Shown: positions 4,577 to 23,789 of the stretch, in pieces | How the letters are laid out: every line of letters starts with the position of its first letter | Numbering within the stretch: position 1 is the stretch's first letter | DNA from: Terriglobales bacterium | Lineage (GTDB): Bacteria; Acidobacteriota; Terriglobia; Terriglobales; Acidobacteriaceae | DNA length: 35,059 nucleotides | Direction of reading: 5' to 3' | NCBI GenBank assembly: GCA_046714215.1 | Contig: JBKKBM010000276.1 | Location: forward strand, 1 to 35,059 | The notes under the pieces: model-generated | The model's database searches: none | What the model saw: the letters and a program-made list of their open reading frames with translations, nothing else | What the model was told of the DNA's origin: nothing | Program-made: the position numbers and the translations under genes

Positions 4577-4652
4577 AGGGGCGTAAGCTCAATGGCTAAA
4601 CTGTCGGTCTCCAAAACCGAACTTGGGGGTTCGAGTCCCTCCGCCCCTGCCA
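4577..4652 (+). tRNA. tRNA-Trp (anticodon CCA), CCA end encoded
   Basis: AGGGGCG...TCGGT-CTCCAAA-ACCGA...GGGGT? T arm GGGGTTCGAGTCCCTCC, 3' acceptor CGCCCCT, then GCCA. Close to the E. coli tRNA-Trp sequence as I remember it. The rpmG-trpT-secE context is canonical. Confidence 0.9.
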
Positions 4653-5735: not shown

Positions 5736-6170
5736 ATGGCACCGAAAAAGGTCACAGGTTATGTGAAGTTGCAGATTGCGGCGGGTAAAGCCACGCCGGC
5801 ACCGCCGGTGGGTCCCGCCCTCGGGCAGGCGCAGATCAACATCATGGAGTTCTGCAAGCAGTTCAACGCTCGCACCAGCGCCAAAGAGATGGATGGCCTC
5901 ATCATCCCGGTGGTGATCTCGGTCTATAACGACCGCAGCTTCACCTTCATCACCAAGACACCTCCGGCGTCCATTCTGTTGAAGCGCGCGGCGGCGGTGG
6001 CCAAAGGTTCGGGCACGCCCAATAAGGAAAAGGTGGGCAAGGTCACCGAGAAGCAGGTGGCGGAGATCGCAAAACAGAAGATGCCGGATTTGAATGCCGC
6101 CACGCTGGAGACAGCGATCAAGAGCATCAAGGGCACGGCCCGCTCGATGGGCATCGACGTCGTCGCCTAA
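5736..6170 (+). CDS. rplK: 50S ribosomal protein L11
   Basis: [44 protein letters not shown]... is the canonical L11 N-terminus. GGAAGGA RBS at 5718-5724. Confidence 0.97.
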
Positions 6171-6264
6171 GTATCGGCGCATAGAGTTTTAGTTCTTTTA
6201 TTCAAGGACCACGGCCTGCCGGAACAGGGGCAGCGCGGTGGAAGACAAAAAGGAAGAAGTCGAA

Positions 6265-6972
6265 ATGAAGAAGTCAGGAAAAAATATCACGAAAGCGCGC
6301 GCGGGGGTGGAGAAGCGCCCTTACACGCTGGCCGATGCGGTGCCCCTGCTGCAGAAGGTCAAGTTCGCCAAGTTCGATGAGACCGTAGAGGTCACGTTGC
6401 GCCTGGGCGTGGATCCGAAACATGCCGACCAGATGGTCCGCGGCACCGTAGTCCTGCCGCACGGTCTGGGCAAGTCGAAAAAGGTGCTGGTCATCGCCAC
6501 CGGAGAAAAACAGCGCGAAGCCGAAGCGGCGGGCGCGGACTTCGTCGGTGGAGAAGAGATGGTGGAGAAGATCCAGAAAGAGAACTGGACGGACTTTGAC
6601 GCCCTCATCGCCACGCCGGACGTGATGAAGTCAGTCGGCAAACTAGGTAAGGTGCTCGGCCCCAAAGGCTTGATGCCCAATCCTAAGACGGGCACGGTGA
6701 CCTTCGATGTGGCCACGGCGATAAAAGAGATCAAGGCCGGCAAGGTGGAGTTCCGCACGGACAAGACCGCGCTGGTGCACGTGCCGGTGGGCAAGATCTC
6801 GTTCTCGGTCGACAAGTTGGTAGAGAACGCCACCACCATCATCACCAGCGTGGTGAAAGCGAAACCGGCGGCCGCCAAGGGTAAGTACATCAAGGCTGCG
6901 TATATCTCTTCGAGCATGGGGCCGGGCGTCGCGCTCGACACCAGCGCGGTGGAATTGGCCGCGAAGGCGTAA
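6265..6972 (+). CDS. rplA: 50S ribosomal protein L1
   Basis: [25 protein letters not shown]...[22 protein letters not shown] is typical L1. AGGAAG RBS at 6251-6256. The GTG at 6238 is rejected as an upstream extension. Confidence 0.96.
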
Positions 6973-7718: not shown

Positions 7719-8102
7719 ATGGCCGATCTACAACAGTTGGAAGAATCAATCGTGAGCTTGTCGCTGCTCGATGCGGCGCAGCTCGTTAAGAAGCTTGAGG
7801 AGCGCCTCGGCGTCTCCGCAGCGGCAGCGGCACCGGTGATGATGGCTGGTGGCGGCGCGGCGGCGGGTGCGGCCCCGGCAGCGGAAGCCCAGACCGAGTT
7901 CAGCGTGATCCTGAAGGACGTGGGAGCCAAGAAGATCGAGGTCATCAAGGCCGTCCGCGAAGTCACCAGCCTGGGCTTGAAAGAAGCCAAGGACTTGGTC
8001 GACGGCGCGCCCAAGCCGATCAAAGAAGGCGTAAGCAAGGAAGACGCCGAGAATATCAAGAAGAAGTTCGCCGATGCCGGCGCGACCGTCGAAATCAAGT
8101 AA
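7719..8102 (+). CDS. rplL: 50S ribosomal protein L7/L12
   Basis: 127 aa with an Ala/Gly-rich hinge followed by [52 protein letters not shown], the canonical L12 C-terminal domain. AGGAG RBS at 7707-7711. Confidence 0.98.
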
Positions 8103-8148
8103 ACGGCCGTACTTCGCTTGATCCGTTTTGAGGGGACTCGGGCGGCAG

Positions 8149-8220
8149 CGGGTGAGCGCGGAGCGAGCGCCGTATAGCGCGAGCAAAGTGCGAGGGCAAA
8201 GCGGCGAAGCCGCGGAGCCC
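8149..8220 (-). repeat. Inverted-orientation copy of the 2512-2584 repeat element
   Basis: CGGGTGAGCGCGGAGCGAGCGCCGTATAGCGCGAGCAAAGTGCGAGGGCAAAGCGGCGAAGCCGCGGAGCCC aligns along its whole length with the reverse complement of the 2512-2584 core. The inner hairpin is GCGGC-GAA-GCCGC here versus GCAGC-TT-GCTGC there, a compensated pair change. Confidence 0.8.
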
Positions 8221-8338
8221 TGGATTTGACGACCCATGCCGCTCGGAGCTCCGGTGCTGAACTCGGTTTCAGTGCTAAACGCTTTTTTCGGACTTCGTAA
8301 ATGAGGTTGGCATGGAGTTCGCGGTTTCGATAAGGAAC

Positions 8339-8396
8339 TGCGAACAAAGTGCGAGGACGATGCAGCCAAGCGTAATCGCTGGGTTTGCGGAGTCCT
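8339..8396 (-). repeat. Degenerate second copy of the same element
   Basis: TGCGAACAAAGTGCGAGGACGATGCAGCCAAGC...TTTGCGGAGTCC shares the GCGA[A/G]CAAAGTGCGAGG and GCGGAG[T/C]CC blocks with 8149-8220, but carries an internal insertion of about 15 nt. Confidence 0.5.
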
Positions 8397-8670
8397 TGGA
8401 TAAAAAAGACTGGCGCAGAAAAAGACAATTTCAGCATTCCTGAGCGCGGCACAACGCGCCGGCGGAGACACTCGTCTCTGCGGGCGCATGCGCGTCTTTA
8501 CTGGAATATTGCGCAGTGTAGCAAAGTAAATCGCGAAAGCAAGAAGGCAATTTCAGTTCCTTTGCTTGTAGACGCGAGAGCAGGATGCACCACCGCAGTA
8601 GCGCTCCGGCCGCCCATGGTCGGATGCGTAAGGCCTGCAACACGTGGGTAGAAAACTAGGAGTTTCTCTA

Positions 8671-20210: not shown

Positions 20211-21074
20211 CTAATTCACCCACGGCCCCTTGCCCGCGTCGCCATTATCTTTCTTCGGTTCCGCTTCCGGGCCGCGGTAGTTGCCGTGCTCGTCAAAATA
20301 ATCGTTGCGGTCGTGTTTCCGCATATACACTTCGAACTTCTTGGCCGCTTGTCGCCGCTTCCACTTGTGATAGCGATTGCGCAGTCCATAGGCCGACTCG
20401 CTGAAGCCCAGGCCATGGCGCGGCAGGAATTTCAAATAGAGGAATCCGAAGAGTGCTCCGCCCAGATGCGCGATGGCCGAACCCGGGTCTTCATTGCGCA
20501 GCATGAGCAGGACGTCGATGCCGATCCATATCCCCACCAGATACTTTGCCTTGATGGCGATGGGGAAAGGGAAGAGGTAGACCTCAGACTCGCGAAAAAT
20601 GAGGCCGAAGGCGATGAGGAGTCCGAAGATCCCGCCGGACGCTCCCACCAGATGAACAAGAGGAGAGAGACCGAATACTCCCGCGTAGGAGACGGCGGAG
20701 AAGACCAGCGCGGAACCGATGACGCACCAGTAGTAATACTCAAAGAACTGCCGCCGGCCAAAGTGCTGCTCCATCTGGGCGCCGAACATCCAGAGGACGA
20801 GCATGTTGAACAGCAGGTGCATCACCCCACCGTGGAGAAATGAGTAGGTAATGAGCTGCCACAGGAATCCCTGGCCAATGAGAAGTCCCGGCGTCAGGCC
20901 TAAGTACTCAAAGGACGCCCCGTATAGGCCGGGCGCGAAGCCTTTCAAAAGGGACTGCAGGACAAAAATCGCCACATTGGCGATGATCAGCCAGCGTACT
21001 GCTCCGGAGAACGTGGGCATGTTGAACCCACCCATGCCCCGACCGCCCCCGCCACCTGACATTGTTCGTCGCAT
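20211..21074 (-). CDS. Rhomboid family intramembrane serine protease with a charged C-terminal cytoplasmic tail
   Basis: FLHGGVMHLLFNMLVLW (the H-x4-N block), GASGGIFGL (GxSG catalytic Ser) and AHLGGALFG (catalytic His). The start is taken at the internal ATG 21074 (MRRTMSGGGGG...), 8 nt downstream of the preceding gene's stop. The ORF-track start at 21221 would overlap that gene by about 140 nt. Confidence 0.88.
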   Translation of the reverse strand: MRRTMSGGGGGRGMGGFNMPTFSGAVRWLIIANVAIFVLQSLLKGFAPGLYGASFEYLGLTPGLLIGQGFLWQLITYSFLHGGVMHLLFNMLVLWMFGAQMEQHFGRRQFFEYYYWCVIGSALVFSAVSYAGVFGLSPLVHLVGASGGIFGLLIAFGLIFRESEVYLFPFPIAIKAKYLVGIWIGIDVLLMLRNEDPGSAIAHLGGALFGFLYLKFLPRHGLGFSESAYGLRNRYHKWKRRQAAKKFEVYMRKHDRNDYFDEHGNYRGPEAEPKKDNGDAGKGPWVN

Positions 21075-21082
21075 GCTTTTCC

Positions 21083-22516
21083 CTATCTCTCCGGTGTTGG
21101 TATCACGGCTAGGCTGCGGTTGCCTTTTTTGTCCACCGACCGCACGGCGAAGATCACGTTGTCCTTGGAGCGCTTGAGGGTCGCGGTGGTCACGTTGCCC
21201 ACGGTCTCCACATTCTCCCACTCAGCCGCCGTCGTCGGACGCCACAGTACTTCGTATTTCACCGCGCGGCCGTCGGCCGGGGCCGACCAGGTAAGTTCTG
21301 AATCGTTGTCCAGTTTTCGCGTCAGCAGCTTCACATCCACCGGCGGCCCGGGCGCCGACGCCAAAGATGCTAGCGAAGCCGCATTCACTCGCGCCACGTT
21401 GGCTACGTACTCGAAGTCCACGAACTTCGCCAAATCTCCATATTCGATGCCGTTCTCCGTCCGCGGGTTCTGGTGCTGCCGGTTGAAATCTTCGCGATAC
21501 TCAGTGAACCGCACCGCGGCGAATCCGCTCTCGTTGAAGGCAGTATGGTCGCCCCCGCGCAGAAAACGGTCGCGCCGGAAGATCAGCTTCGCCTGTAACG
21601 GCGCCGCCACATACTTTGCCCCGGTCTCGCGTACATAACGCGCCAACTGCCGTGACGCAGAGTCATTCTCCAGCGCCAGGTTGCGGATGGTGCGCAGCTC
21701 CGCTTCGGTTGCCGCCTGCGGGATTCCCTCGGAAAAGACGCGCACAATCGCCGTATCCTGATCTTTGGCTTTGTTGCCCCCCACGATGTCGTTATTCAGC
21801 ACTCCCGCGATGCTCCAGCCCTCCGCCTTCGCCATCTTGGCGAAGTGTCGGGCCCCGTTCAGCCCCTGTTCCTCGCCCGCCACGGTTAGAAAGATGATGG
21901 TAGAAGGGAAGCGGCGCTGGCTCAACACGCGCGCGCACTCCAGGCTCACCGCCGTGCCGCTGGCATCGTCATTAGCGCCCGGCGCCGGGTCGGTGATGTT
22001 CAACGTATCGCTGTTGCGCGAATCATAATGGCCGGTGACCACAAAGATCGGCTGCGGGCTCTGCTCTGAGGTTCCCCGCAGGACGGCATACACATTGCTG
22101 ATCTCGGTCGCCCTGGGAATACGGTTCGCCGGCTGCTCGGTAAACGTATCCAGCTTCACTTCCAGGCAGCCGCCGCACGCCTGCGAATATTTTTCAAATT
22201 CGGATTTGATCCAGTCCCGCGCCGCCACGATGCCTCGCCCTTTGGCCGCCAACTCCGGATCGTTCGCCGACAGCGTGTTGCGGTTGTGGAAGCTGACCAG
22301 CTTCTCGATGGTGGCCTTGATGCGTGCCGCGGAGACATTTTTTACCGCCGCAGCAATGGCCGGATCCAAATCTTTGCGCGGCAGCCGGGCAGTACGGGTC
22401 GTCTTTGGTGTGCTCGGCGCCACCGGGGGCGTCTGGGAGAAGGCGGTGCAACTCAAGGCCACGCATCCGCATACAAGCAGGGTGGCCATCATTCGCCACG
22501 GCGATTTGCCTATCAT
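21083..22516 (-). CDS. Secreted (possibly lipoprotein) M28 family aminopeptidase with a C-terminal fibronectin-III-like domain
   Basis: Signal peptide MIGKSPWRMMATLLVCGCVALSCTAFSQ. M28 motifs are VVTGHYDS, PGANDDASGTAV and FLTVAGEEQGLNGARHFA. The C-terminal ~90 aa (PPVDVKLL...ELTWSAPADGRAVKYEVLWRPT...) looks FN3-like. GAGGAA RBS. Confidence 0.88.
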   Translation of the reverse strand: MIGKSPWRMMATLLVCGCVALSCTAFSQTPPVAPSTPKTTRTARLPRKDLDPAIAAAVKNVSAARIKATIEKLVSFHNRNTLSANDPELAAKGRGIVAARDWIKSEFEKYSQACGGCLEVKLDTFTEQPANRIPRATEISNVYAVLRGTSEQSPQPIFVVTGHYDSRNSDTLNITDPAPGANDDASGTAVSLECARVLSQRRFPSTIIFLTVAGEEQGLNGARHFAKMAKAEGWSIAGVLNNDIVGGNKAKDQDTAIVRVFSEGIPQAATEAELRTIRNLALENDSASRQLARYVRETGAKYVAAPLQAKLIFRRDRFLRGGDHTAFNESGFAAVRFTEYREDFNRQHQNPRTENGIEYGDLAKFVDFEYVANVARVNAASLASLASAPGPPVDVKLLTRKLDNDSELTWSAPADGRAVKYEVLWRPTTAAEWENVETVGNVTTATLKRSKDNVIFAVRSVDKKGNRSLAVIPTPER

Positions 22517-22574
22517 AGGTTCCTCTTCGGGTCCTCTTCAGGAAATTAGATTTTATGCAGGACGCCAGTTGCAC

Positions 22575-22603
22575 TTGACGCGGGCGCGGAAGCAACTTAA
22601 ATA
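22575..22603 (+). promoter_or_regulatory. Candidate sigma70-type promoter for the lysW-like operon
   Basis: TTGACG (22575-22580), a 17-nt spacer, then TAAATA (22598-22603), in the divergent spacer about 70 nt upstream of ATG 22675. Confidence 0.4.
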
Positions 22604-22674
22604 TAAGACAAGGGTATCATTCTCCAGGGGAGCCTTGGGGCGCCCCTGCATTGTAGCGAAAGCGAGGCAGCACG

Positions 22675-22869
22675 ATGGTTTTGTGTCCGGAATGTGACAA
22701 CGATCTTGATCTCGATGTGGAAGAAGTCGAGGAGGGCGACGTGGTCTCCTGCGTCGAGTGCGGCACGGATTTTGAAGTAGTCGCCGCTGACCCCCTGGAA
22801 CTCGCTCCCGTCGCTGATGACGATGATGACGAGGAAGACGAGGATGAGGATGAGGACGAGGATGAATAA
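22675..22869 (+). CDS. LysW-like zinc-ribbon amino-group-carrier-type mini-protein with a poly-Asp/Glu C-terminus (64 aa)
   Basis: MVLCPECDNDLDLDVEEVEEGDVVSCVECGTDFEVVAADPLELAPV... parallels Thermus LysW as I remember it (CPECGAEL...GELVVCEDCGAELEVVGLDPLRLEP). The canonical C-terminal EDWGE is replaced by DDDDDEEDEDEDEDEDE. Confidence 0.75.
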   Translation: MVLCPECDNDLDLDVEEVEEGDVVSCVECGTDFEVVAADPLELAPVADDDDDEEDEDEDEDEDE

Positions 22870-23275
22870 GCTGCGCCGGGTCTGGCTGCATGGAGCCCTG
22901 GCGGGACTCCTATTCGCGCTTTGCCTCGCCCTGATTCCCGCCACAGGGGTCGCGCAGAACAACGTGGATCCCACCAAGCCCTACGCCCTCATCTTCGGCA
23001 CGGTCTTTGGTCCCGATGACCGGCCGGCTGCCAACGTCAAGATCAAGATCCGCCGGGGCGATCACAAACGGGCCAAGTGGGAATTGGTCTCCGACCGCCG
23101 CGGAGAGTTCGCGCAACGCTTTCCCGCCGGCGCCGCCGACTACTACATCCGCACCGAGATTCCTAAAAAGTATGCTATTGAAAACAAAGAAGTTAAGGTC
23201 AGAATTGCCAATGACGAGCGTCAGGACATCGCGCTGCATCTAACTACGGTAGCTGCCAAAGAAAAGAAGAAGTGA
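22862..23275 (+). CDS. Small secreted CarboxypepD_reg-like (carboxypeptidase regulatory-like) domain protein
   Basis: ATG at 22862 overlaps the lysW-like stop (ATGAATAA, 8-nt overlap). Signal peptide MNKLRRVWLHGALAGLLFALCLALIPATGVAQ. It contains a single Ig-like module (IFGTVFGPDDRPAANVKIKIRR...SDRRGEFAQRFPAGAADYYIR). Confidence 0.8.
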   Translation: MNKLRRVWLHGALAGLLFALCLALIPATGVAQNNVDPTKPYALIFGTVFGPDDRPAANVKIKIRRGDHKRAKWELVSDRRGEFAQRFPAGAADYYIRTEIPKKYAIENKEVKVRIANDERQDIALHLTTVAAKEKKK

Positions 23276-23344: not shown

Positions 23345-23743
23345 TTGAAACGTCTTACCAAGATCGTGTTAGGCGGGACCATCCTGGGGGCGGCCGCTTT
23401 TGCGTTCATGCCGCGCAGCGTGGCTGCAACCACAGAACCTGAACCGATCATGCAAAAGGATAAGGACAAGAACCAGCTCAAGAGCCTCACCGGCACCGTC
23501 GTCGGTGAGGGCGAGGCCCCACTGCCGCAGGCCGTGGTCTACCTCAAGAACATGAAGACGCTGGCGGTGAAAAGCTTTATTGCCGATGACACCGGGACAT
23601 TCCGGTTCTTCGCGCTTTCACCCAACACCGATTACCAGGTCTATGCCGAGTACAACGGCCAGCGCAGCGGCACCAAGACGGTGAGCGCCTTTGACAGCAA
23701 GACCAAGGTGGAGATGACGCTGAAGATCGACGTCAAAAAGTAG
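23345..23743 (+). CDS. Small secreted CarboxypepD_reg-like domain protein (paralogue-like neighbour)
   Basis: TTG start with an AGGAG RBS. Signal peptide MKRLTKIVLGGTILGAAAFAFMPRSVAA. Domain signature LTGTVVGEGEAPLPQAVVYLKN...ADDTGTFRFFALSPNTDYQVYAE. Confidence 0.8.
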   Translation: MKRLTKIVLGGTILGAAAFAFMPRSVAATTEPEPIMQKDKDKNQLKSLTGTVVGEGEAPLPQAVVYLKNMKTLAVKSFIADDTGTFRFFALSPNTDYQVYAEYNGQRSGTKTVSAFDSKTKVEMTLKIDVKK

Positions 23744-23760: not shown

Positions 23761-23789
23761 AAACAGGCCGCCATGCTGGCGGCCTGTTT
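23761..23789. terminator. Bidirectional intrinsic terminator between convergent genes
   Basis: AAACAGGCCGCC-ATGCT-GGCGGCCTGTTT is a 12-bp stem flanked by A-run and T-run sequence. It lies between the stop of 23345-23743 (+) and the stop of rpsA (-). Confidence 0.85.

Follow-up and report, generated by a model that had tools for sequence, protein, structure and literature searches.

A LysW-fold mini-protein with an acidic tail is encoded beside exported CarboxypepD_reg-like proteins and a rhomboid in Terriglobia

Results

The mini-gene and its operon

The window analysed here is a 35,059-nucleotide (nt) stretch of DNA from a Terriglobales bacterium (assembly GCA_046714215.1, contig JBKKBM010000276.1), and the subject of this report is a small gene at positions 22675-22869 of its forward strand, which we call the mini-gene. 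Its 64-amino-acid (aa) product, MVLCPECDNDLDLDVEEVEEGDVVSCVECGTDFEVVAADPLELAPVADDDDDEEDEDEDEDEDE, has the cysteine pairs CPEC...CVEC, an EVV..DPLEL segment and an acidic C-terminal run. The window also holds tuf, nusG, rpl genes, rpoB, rpoC, BrkB, pyk, a rhomboid gene, an M28 peptidase gene and two CarboxypepD_reg genes (CPD1 and CPD2), together with rpsA, HIT, patatin, ligA, DUF1579, DAGK, YdjM, DUF6580 and VTT genes. An earlier note on this DNA had described the open reading frame (ORF) as having LysW architecture and ending in 19 consecutive acidic residues. The architecture was borne out by the searches and model described below, but the run is 17 residues long (residues 48-64, DDDDDEEDEDEDEDEDE), as is the string quoted in that note. 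Residues 1-47 (22675-22815, forward strand) make up a C4 zinc-ribbon globular domain, and residues 48-64 with the TAA stop at 22867-22869 make up an Asp/Glu (D/E) tail (22816-22869, forward strand) that is predicted to be disordered. The protein has a net charge of -32, with -15 in the globular part and -17 in the tail, and the DNA that encodes the tail is an imperfect 6/9-nt tandem repeat (Tandem Repeats Finder).

A Shine-Dalgarno sequence, GAGG, can be read directly at 22664-22667 (forward strand), 7 nt before the ATG, and a G-rich block is found there in relatives too. Further upstream, the element ACTTGAC-N17-TAAATATA (22574-22605, forward strand), with the promoter-like TTGACG-N17-TAAATATA at 22575-22605, heads the operon. 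Sixteen relatives, though their leaders cannot otherwise be aligned, share it at 80% conservation or more, and no other non-coding part of the locus is conserved as well; it probably acts as a promoter. A scan with the sigma-70 consensus did not pick it up. It may belong to a class of strong promoters in Terriglobia whose -10 region is unusual. An Rfam scan of the window returned tRNAs only, with no riboswitch in the 158-nt leader; a lysine riboswitch ahead of the mini-gene was dropped on this result.

CPD1 (22862-23275, forward strand) encodes a predicted exported CarboxypepD_reg-like protein of 137 aa. Its ATG overlaps the mini-gene stop codon by 8 nt and its N-terminus, MNKLRRVWLHGALAGLLFALCLALIPATGVA, resembles a signal peptide. 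CPD1 scored below the PF13620 cutoff (25.1 against 32.3 bits), is 22% identical to CPD2 and is found in most loci of the window's clade (clade a), where it is a lineage-specific paralogue. CPD2 (23345-23743, forward strand; 132 aa, with a putative signal peptide) scored 47 bits against the same cutoff. It is the conserved partner, being 36-45% identical to the single CPD protein encoded after the mini-gene in clades b, c and d. A terminator-like hairpin with a 13-bp stem, eight GC pairs and a T-rich tail (23761-23789, forward strand), recognised by consensus match only, would end the three-gene operon.

The reading frame of CPD1 extends into the tail-coding DNA. In the +1 frame the tail codons (GAN)n become (ANG)n, which encode M, T, K or R and never a stop, so that the CPD1 ORF is open back to an ATG at 22817 (region 22817-22869). 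A protein begun there would start with MTMMTRKTRMRMRTRM before the signal peptide. Nearly all overlapping CPD1 ORFs of clade a use the +1 frame, such that the same DNA encodes an acidic tail and, potentially, a basic N-terminal extension.

Fold, spread and tail variants of the family

The globular part of the mini-protein is a genuine LysW zinc ribbon. With 39.9 bits (E = 3.3e-10) it is well above the 27-bit cutoff of the Pfam model PF21344 (Zn_ribbon_LysW), and a phmmer search of PDB sequences returned the LysW proteins of Thermus (3wwl, E = 6.8e-8) and Thermococcus (5k2m, E = 2.3e-5). An AlphaFold2 model built from 70 family sequences had predicted local distance difference test (pLDDT) values of 86-90 in the globular blocks and of 57-58 in the tail, which was without secondary structure. 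When this model was compared to the PDB with Foldseek, the top five matches were all LysW chains (root-mean-square deviation 1.2-2.0 Å, probability 1.00) and nothing else was close. Residues C4, C7, C26, C29, G21, E28, G30, E34 and P40 were invariant across the 70 sequences.

By its conservation the mini-gene is a real gene rather than a chance ORF, since a first homology search with the mini-protein gave 461 proteins at E <= 1e-3 and a scan of species-representative genomes gave at least 581 confirmed mini-gene stretches. Nearly all record titles in the scan were Terriglobales, Terriglobia, Acidobacteriaceae, Ca. Angelobacter, Korobacteraceae or Sulfotelmatobacter. The scan query was a narrow clade-a alignment and returned Terriglobia only, which limits the independence of the synteny evidence given below. 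Second and third protein searches identified clade b (798 matches, including some metagenome-assembled genomes (MAGs) named Terracidiphilus) and clade c (1,350 matches, cultured Granulicella such as G. arctica and G. sp. WH15 among them). Judged by these matches, the mini-gene defines a Terriglobia-wide family. Many representatives of 50% clusters were frameshifted reads of the GA-rich tail, with RRRR-type endings or fusions to CPD1, and were treated as artefacts. In literature on LysW-like proteins, on rhomboids and zinc ribbons, and on aminoadipate or diaminopimelate in Acidobacteria, of which our coverage was incomplete, the family was not mentioned; PMC5584792 uses the name "lysW" for a transporter that has no relation to it.

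Size and charge are held within narrow limits. The zinc-ribbon core is invariably 43 aa in clade a, and the whole protein is 62-67 aa in 119/120 members of clade a, 118/119 of clade c and 117/117 of clade b, with a median net charge of -31, -26 and -28, respectively. The tail after PLEL measures 19-24 aa in 119/120 relatives. Its exact sequence varies even where the globular domains are identical (P0001-P0004), and each clade has motifs of its own. In clade c the tail reads PLEL-APV-D-E-A-G-Y-D-D-E, followed by a variable 5-6-aa spacer and (D/E)5, with GYDDE invariant in 108-109 of 109 proteins of the Granulicella clade, whereas clade b follows the pattern ...D(L/Y)DE..(L/S/P)(Y/F)EE(D/E)EEE. 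Among 73 distinct species-level orthologues of clade a, 41 end in D-[Y/F/L]-(S/A), typically ...EDGDY(S). The earlier note had held that a tail variable or absent in close relatives would mark a non-functional low-complexity expansion. The tails do vary in exact sequence, but their length, charge and clade-specific motifs are conserved, so the expectation does not hold in the sense intended.

Because the aromatic residue of GYDDE lies at about the same distance from the PLxL motif as the Trp of EDWGE in Thermus LysW, the family tail looks like a remodelled and extended LysW tail. Judged against its relatives, the all-D/E tail of the window is a degenerate version, its subclade having exchanged the aromatic motifs for pure D/E.

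Several other arrangements of LysW-like genes were seen. A Ca. Angelobacter MAG (L022) has two tandem copies of the mini-gene (6001-6201 and 6314-6517) ahead of its CPD genes, one with a tail ending in …EEEGE and the other in …ESDY. Proteins P0181, P0204, P0206, P0236, P0243, P0257 and P0263 contain two or three tandem LysW-like zinc ribbons joined by acidic or basic linkers. There are also two giants, P0121 and P0252, in which as many as 10 stretches matched over lengths of 1052 and 1552 aa. Another LysW-like clade (L010:1019-1809, L095:1991-3228 and L096:518-1755) has a long acidic linker and ends in DWDE or DWDT. Here, the following gene, which overlaps by 4 nt, encodes a bona fide LarE sulfur transferase, which scored 313.8 bits with TIGR00268 (cutoff 150), and a Response_reg+PilZ gene lies divergently upstream. 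In these three loci a LysW-fold protein is paired with a PP-loop enzyme rather than an ATP-grasp ligase, and it may serve as a carrier with an adenylated or thiolated C-terminus.

Carrier hallmarks in the mini-protein family

LysW and ArgW are recognised by zinc-binding cysteines, a C-terminal EDWGE that is read by the GSWGR motif of the ligase, and a terminal Glu that carries the substrate; mutation of that Glu (E54A) causes arginine auxotrophy (PMC10433800). Of these hallmarks the mini-protein family keeps only the zinc-binding cysteines. The LysW-family model search that the earlier note had proposed gave a divided answer: PF21344 was passed as described above, but the equivalog models TIGR01206 (30.4 against 53.2) and NF041070 (29.3 against 75) were not. 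No family member has EDWGE, the nearest analogue being an internal GY(D/E)(D/E)E in some clades, and no tail contains a Trp among about 350 distinct family sequences or the 73 clade-a orthologues. A terminal Glu is present in the window protein but is not conserved family-wide. It is found in only 16 of the 73 clade-a orthologues, the other 57 ending mostly in Y, S, A, L or F and also in D, while clade c ends in E in 101, D in 17 and G in 1 of 119 proteins and clade b in E in 110/117.

The enzymes of a carrier pathway were likewise missing from the neighbourhood. Pfam models and a jackhmmer search of the window ORFs with a RimK seed found no LysX/ArgX/RimK, LysZ, LysY, LysJ or LysK in the window, in agreement with the earlier note. 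The validity of the seed was confirmed by its scores of 670 bits with the RimK equivalog and 137 bits with LysX. Across about 175 loci (about 1.4 Mb), the search was confined to flanks of 5-10 kb, and no RimK/LysX-type ATP-grasp gene was found within them. Nonetheless, JGI and UniRef spread the name "alpha-aminoadipate/glutamate carrier protein LysW" onto the family, which would falsely imply an aminoadipate-type lysine/arginine pathway in very abundant soil bacteria.

A module retained across rearranged loci

The earlier note had called the gene an orphan, which is misleading, as it is linked to CPD in four clades and to a divergent rhomboid. In the window and many relatives of clade a, the core of rhomboid, M28, mini-gene, CPD1 and CPD2 is flanked by pyk and rpsA. 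In two other clade-a loci, L004 and L007, the downstream flank is different, with BON and cation-efflux genes in L004 and another set of genes in L007; both have M28, mini-gene, CPD1 and CPD2, and L004 has the rhomboid too. Outside clade a the flanks are an acyltransferase and GatB in clade b (L009; rhomboid, mini-gene, CPD), AspRS and a cupin in one clade-c locus (L094; rhomboid, mini-gene, CPD), and AspRS and Crp in Granulicella sp. WH15 (L177, CP042596.1, also clade c; rhomboid, M28, mini-gene, CPD). A further clade-c locus on a short contig (L011) has M28, mini-gene and CPD, and two clade-d loci (L012 and L013) have mini-gene and CPD between an OYE reductase and HPPK. The order mini-gene then CPD is therefore kept in clades a, b, c and d despite unrelated outer flanks, and in three of these clades (a, b and c) the rhomboid gene points away from the mini-gene. 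One typical Terriglobales locus (L016; pyk, rhomboid, M28, mini-gene, CPD1, CPD2, rpsA) lies on a contig titled "Candidatus Saccharimonadales bacterium" and is probably mis-binned.

Among about 80 genome loci, nearly every one with downstream sequence has one or two CPD genes 3' of the mini-gene, with the 8-nt overlap in the window and gaps of 0-4 nt in L009 and L012. All CPD proteins have signal-peptide-like N-termini. The mature proteins have a median isoelectric point (pI) of about 9 and a net charge of about +2 to +3, and some are acidic (pI 5.7-6.3). Because mature CPD is only mildly basic, we do not regard its electrostatic attraction to the mini-protein as the likely main contact.

The M28 peptidase gene (21083-22516, reverse strand; PF04389, 96.2 bits) is divergent from the mini-gene, and its product has a signal-peptide-like N-terminus, suggesting export, and a fibronectin-III-like C-terminal region. 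It recurs at the same position in clade a, in L011 and in Granulicella sp. WH15 (53% identity). Examination of the homologues' neighbourhoods, which the earlier note had recommended, thus brought out a conserved module of CPD and rhomboid, often with M28, in which the rhomboid is an unexpected second partner with a near-invariant basic tail.

The rhomboid and its basic tail

The rhomboid gene (20211-21074, reverse strand; PF01694, 102.4 bits) lies in the same direction as the M28 gene, at an 8-nt gap, and encodes a membrane protein of 287 aa with six hydrophobic segments and intact GASGG and AHLGG motifs. Its C-terminal tail (20214-20402, reverse strand) has a basic core, RNRYHKWKRRQAAKKFEVYMRKHDR, with a net charge of +9. 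Across clades the rhomboid is only 38-44% identical overall, but its C-terminal 60-70 residues include a near-invariant basic segment with the consensus RNxYY(R/K)WKRR(R/Q)AA(K/R)KFEVYM(R/H)K...FD..G......W(V/M)N. In the hydropathy profile the rhomboid core has six segments; the N-terminus is positive, and the C-terminal tail contains 16 K/R. By the positive-inside rule, both termini are predicted to lie inside, placing the tail in the cytoplasm.

When the metagenomes were scanned with the rhomboid tail alone, the mini-gene was found in 27/29 loci whose upstream flank was 2.3 kb or longer; the best 80 loci were again of Terriglobia type, and the taxonomic range was not extended. The window protein has the GxSG Ser and the His of the sixth transmembrane segment (TM6), the features of a rhomboid intramembrane serine protease, and so do 72 of about 77 clade-a loci. 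The catalytic sites are lost in L009 (GCFGG/AQLGG), L094 (GAWAG/LQLSG) and Granulicella sp. WH15 (L177; GAWPP/TELCC), all of which keep the basic tail. Since catalysis has been lost and the tail kept, selection across the module appears to preserve the tail and not proteolysis. In these three proteins (L177:7169-7996, L094:8932-9759 and L009:8943-9758) the Ser, the His and the Asn of TM2 are all gone, making them candidate rhomboid pseudoproteases, cultured organisms included.

Other features of the window

Four tRNA genes lie upstream of tuf (1629-2499) and a weaker tRNA match precedes secE/nusG (4578-4647), in an ordinary str/rif layout. Two long ORFs on the reverse strand (190-1251 and 7746-8489) had no Pfam match; the second, which runs antisense in the interval from rplJ/rplL to rpoB, is perhaps no gene at all.

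Discussion

We consider it very probable that the mini-protein is a LysW-fold protein that does not act as a carrier and is functionally tied to the CPD/rhomboid module. The earlier note had offered, as one of two readings, that the LysW fold was recruited for another role, possibly connected with the downstream secreted protein, and this gains support from the CPD link kept in four clades with different flanks. The case for selection on the module rests on a core that outlasts several rearrangements of its flanks. The LysW fold would then serve outside amino-acid metabolism, in genomic surroundings that are new for it and probably in a new function as well.

How the mini-protein might act within the module is a more tentative matter. 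With a net charge of -32 and no signal peptide it is predicted to be cytoplasmic, and the core of the rhomboid tail, with a charge of +9, is predicted to lie in the same compartment. We propose, at somewhat less than even confidence, that the mini-protein is a cytoplasmic acidic adaptor for which the rhomboid tail is the docking site. It would bind the tail (YYRWKRRRAAKKFEVYMRK) through its acidic surface and serve as a soluble adaptor or regulatory subunit of a rhomboid or pseudo-rhomboid membrane module. The D/E tail would contribute multivalent negative charge, and the motifs in most lineage tails, GYDDE in Granulicella, (L/S)(Y/F)EE in clade b and GDY(S/A) at the very end of most clade-a tails, may provide aromatic contacts. 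The co-expressed exported CPD, and the M28 peptidase in many lineages, would be clients or co-factors of the module. Precedents for the separate steps exist: amino-group carrier proteins (AmCPs) bind positively charged patches of their partners electrostatically (PMC11726168), the cytosolic domain of Bacillus subtilis YqgP governs both rhomboid cleavage and a protease-independent adaptor role (PMC7231995), and rhomboid pseudoproteases act through partners (PMC12615303).

Several points weigh against this proposal. Two tail-bearing rhomboids (L130 and L143) have no mini-gene, CPD or M28 within 2.4-4.3 kb upstream, and the short clade-d contigs have CPD without an adjoining rhomboid. All clades with a taxon assignment belong to one class, Terriglobia, and common descent, instead of selection, could account for some of the linkage. 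Signal peptides and topology were assigned by inspection, from hydropathy and the positive-inside rule, rather than with dedicated predictors. The mini-protein and the rhomboid tail both vary too little for co-variation to be seen, and the partner of the basic tail could be a different protein, a lipid or the ribosome. The docking model also leaves the role of the exported CPD and M28 unexplained. As to L130 and L143, their module may be split or the genes may have been lost.

The earlier note's other reading was that the gene encodes a carrier served by distal enzymes that recognise its tail in a changed way. It would then be a true LysW/ArgW-type protein, with an amino acid loaded onto its C-terminal Glu by an ATP-grasp ligase encoded elsewhere. 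The homology of the globular domain speaks for a carrier, as does the terminal Glu of the window protein and of most members of clades b and c. We disfavour this reading, and regard it as improbable, because the curated equivalog models were not passed, EDWGE and its Trp are absent though the ligase reads the motif, the Glu known to be essential in LysW/ArgW is replaced in most syntenic clade-a orthologues and by Asp in part of clade c, and no ATP-grasp gene was found within 5-10 kb in about 175 loci; moreover, the conserved neighbours encode envelope proteins, not amino-acid enzymes. The partnership with CPD could be explained differently if the mini-protein were a dedicated chaperone or targeting factor for pre-CPD, whose polyanionic tail keeps the basic n-region or the mildly basic mature domain competent for export, with the rhomboid tail perhaps as its membrane receptor. 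The invariant pairing of adjacent or overlapping genes, the signal-peptide-like N-termini and median mature pI of the CPDs, and the K/R/T/M-rich extension of the CPD1 n-region in the +1 frame all fit such a role. However, mature CPD carries little positive charge and is sometimes acidic, small Sec substrates seldom need private chaperones, and this explanation is silent on why the rhomboid tail is the most conserved element; we think it unlikely.

A cation binder or sensor, responding to Zn, Mn, Ca, Fe, Al or polyamines and signalling through its D/E tail to the rhomboid, would do in trans what the metal-binding N-terminal domain does for YqgP, and is compatible with the docking model. Such a protein would offer 17-20 carboxylates on a disordered tail in addition to the zinc site, beside a neighbouring M28 metallopeptidase. 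Terriglobia live in acidic, metal-rich soils. The YqgP cytosolic domain does bind Mn2+/Zn2+ and control rhomboid function (PMC7231995), but the mini-protein has no known homology to it. Given also that no metal transporter or metalloregulator is conserved nearby (a cation-efflux gene occurs in one lineage only, L004 and L005) and that the aromatic motifs GYDDE and GDY resemble sites of protein contact rather than chelation, a role in cation sensing seems distinctly unlikely. The position of the window mini-gene between rpoBC/pyk and rpsA could suggest a mimic of nucleic acid, which a polyanionic tail could imitate; its target would be RNA polymerase or the ribosome, and its model the acidic tail found on the delta subunit of Firmicutes. 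That adjacency is gone in L004 and L007 of clade a and in clades b and c, where CPD and the rhomboid stay, which makes mimicry highly improbable; the adjacency to rpoBC/rpsA was rejected as a functional link because it is not conserved. Finally, the tail might be a neutral low-complexity expansion without a function of its own, produced by slippage of GAT/GAG repeats, as its tandemly repeated DNA and its divergence between proteins with identical globular domains would allow. Maintenance of length within about 5 residues, of reading frame and of D/E content, in hundreds of species and three clades, argues against neutral expansion, as does the invariance of clade-specific motifs such as GYDDE, and we give this explanation almost no weight.

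Returning to the docking proposal, a broader version of it would make the mini-protein a soluble subunit of a previously unrecognised bacterial rhomboid or pseudo-rhomboid complex, a counterpart of iRhoms and Derlins, that controls the fate of the envelope client CPD (its release, quality control or export) together with the exported M28 peptidase. This version is speculative and we hold it to be rather doubtful. If true, it would provide the first non-metabolic function for the LysW fold, and for the first time the set of partners of a bacterial rhomboid pseudoprotease would be defined, in a culturable genus (Granulicella). The functions of bacterial rhomboids are still poorly understood (PMC7231995). 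The rhomboid of this module looks active in some lineages and like a pseudoprotease in cultured Granulicella, with the same basic tail in both, and it offers a three- or four-gene system for studying the role of rhomboid pseudoproteases in bacteria and the recognition of disordered acidic tails.

Among known systems, the closest in structure are LysW and ArgW themselves (Thermus thermophilus LysW, 3WWL/3WWN/5EIO; Thermococcus kodakarensis LysW, 5K2M). These share with the mini-protein the C4 zinc-ribbon fold, with 40-48% identity over 43-47 columns, as well as a very acidic surface and a flexible acidic C-terminal extension after the PLxL motif. The mini-protein differs from them in having no EDWGE, no conserved terminal Glu and a tail about 11 residues longer, and in being encoded not with LysX/Z/Y/J/K but beside a rhomboid, an exported beta-sandwich protein and an M28 peptidase. 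AmCPs of secondary metabolism (the Streptomyces DADH pathways and Serratia ser2; PMC11726168) are also small, acidic (pI about 4) and LysW-like, and dock on positive patches. However, their clusters contain an ATP-grasp ligase, a kinase, a reductase and an aminotransferase, and the proteins have a carrier C-terminus, none of which is found at the mini-gene.

The remaining parallels concern function and the shape of the tail. By functional analogy, the N-terminal domain of YqgP (PMC7231995) resembles the putative adaptor as a cytoplasmic module that controls a rhomboid and is needed for its protease-independent adaptor function, but it is fused in cis, is not a LysW-type zinc ribbon, and works with the client MgtE and the partner FtsH. 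The poly-glutamate tail that RimK adds to ribosomal protein S6 is likewise a C-terminal acidic run on a small protein, and RimK belongs to the same ATP-grasp family as LysX; the acidic run of the mini-protein is instead genetically encoded, no RimK gene lies nearby, and the protein is unrelated to S6. Compared to iRhoms and Derlins, the module rhomboid is bacterial, has a 6-TM core only and a short basic C-terminal tail, and appears catalytically competent in the window copy. What the Granulicella- and Terracidiphilus-type rhomboids have in common with iRhoms and Derlins is the loss of the catalytic Ser and His with retention of a conserved cytoplasmic extension, a hallmark of partner-dependent pseudoproteases.

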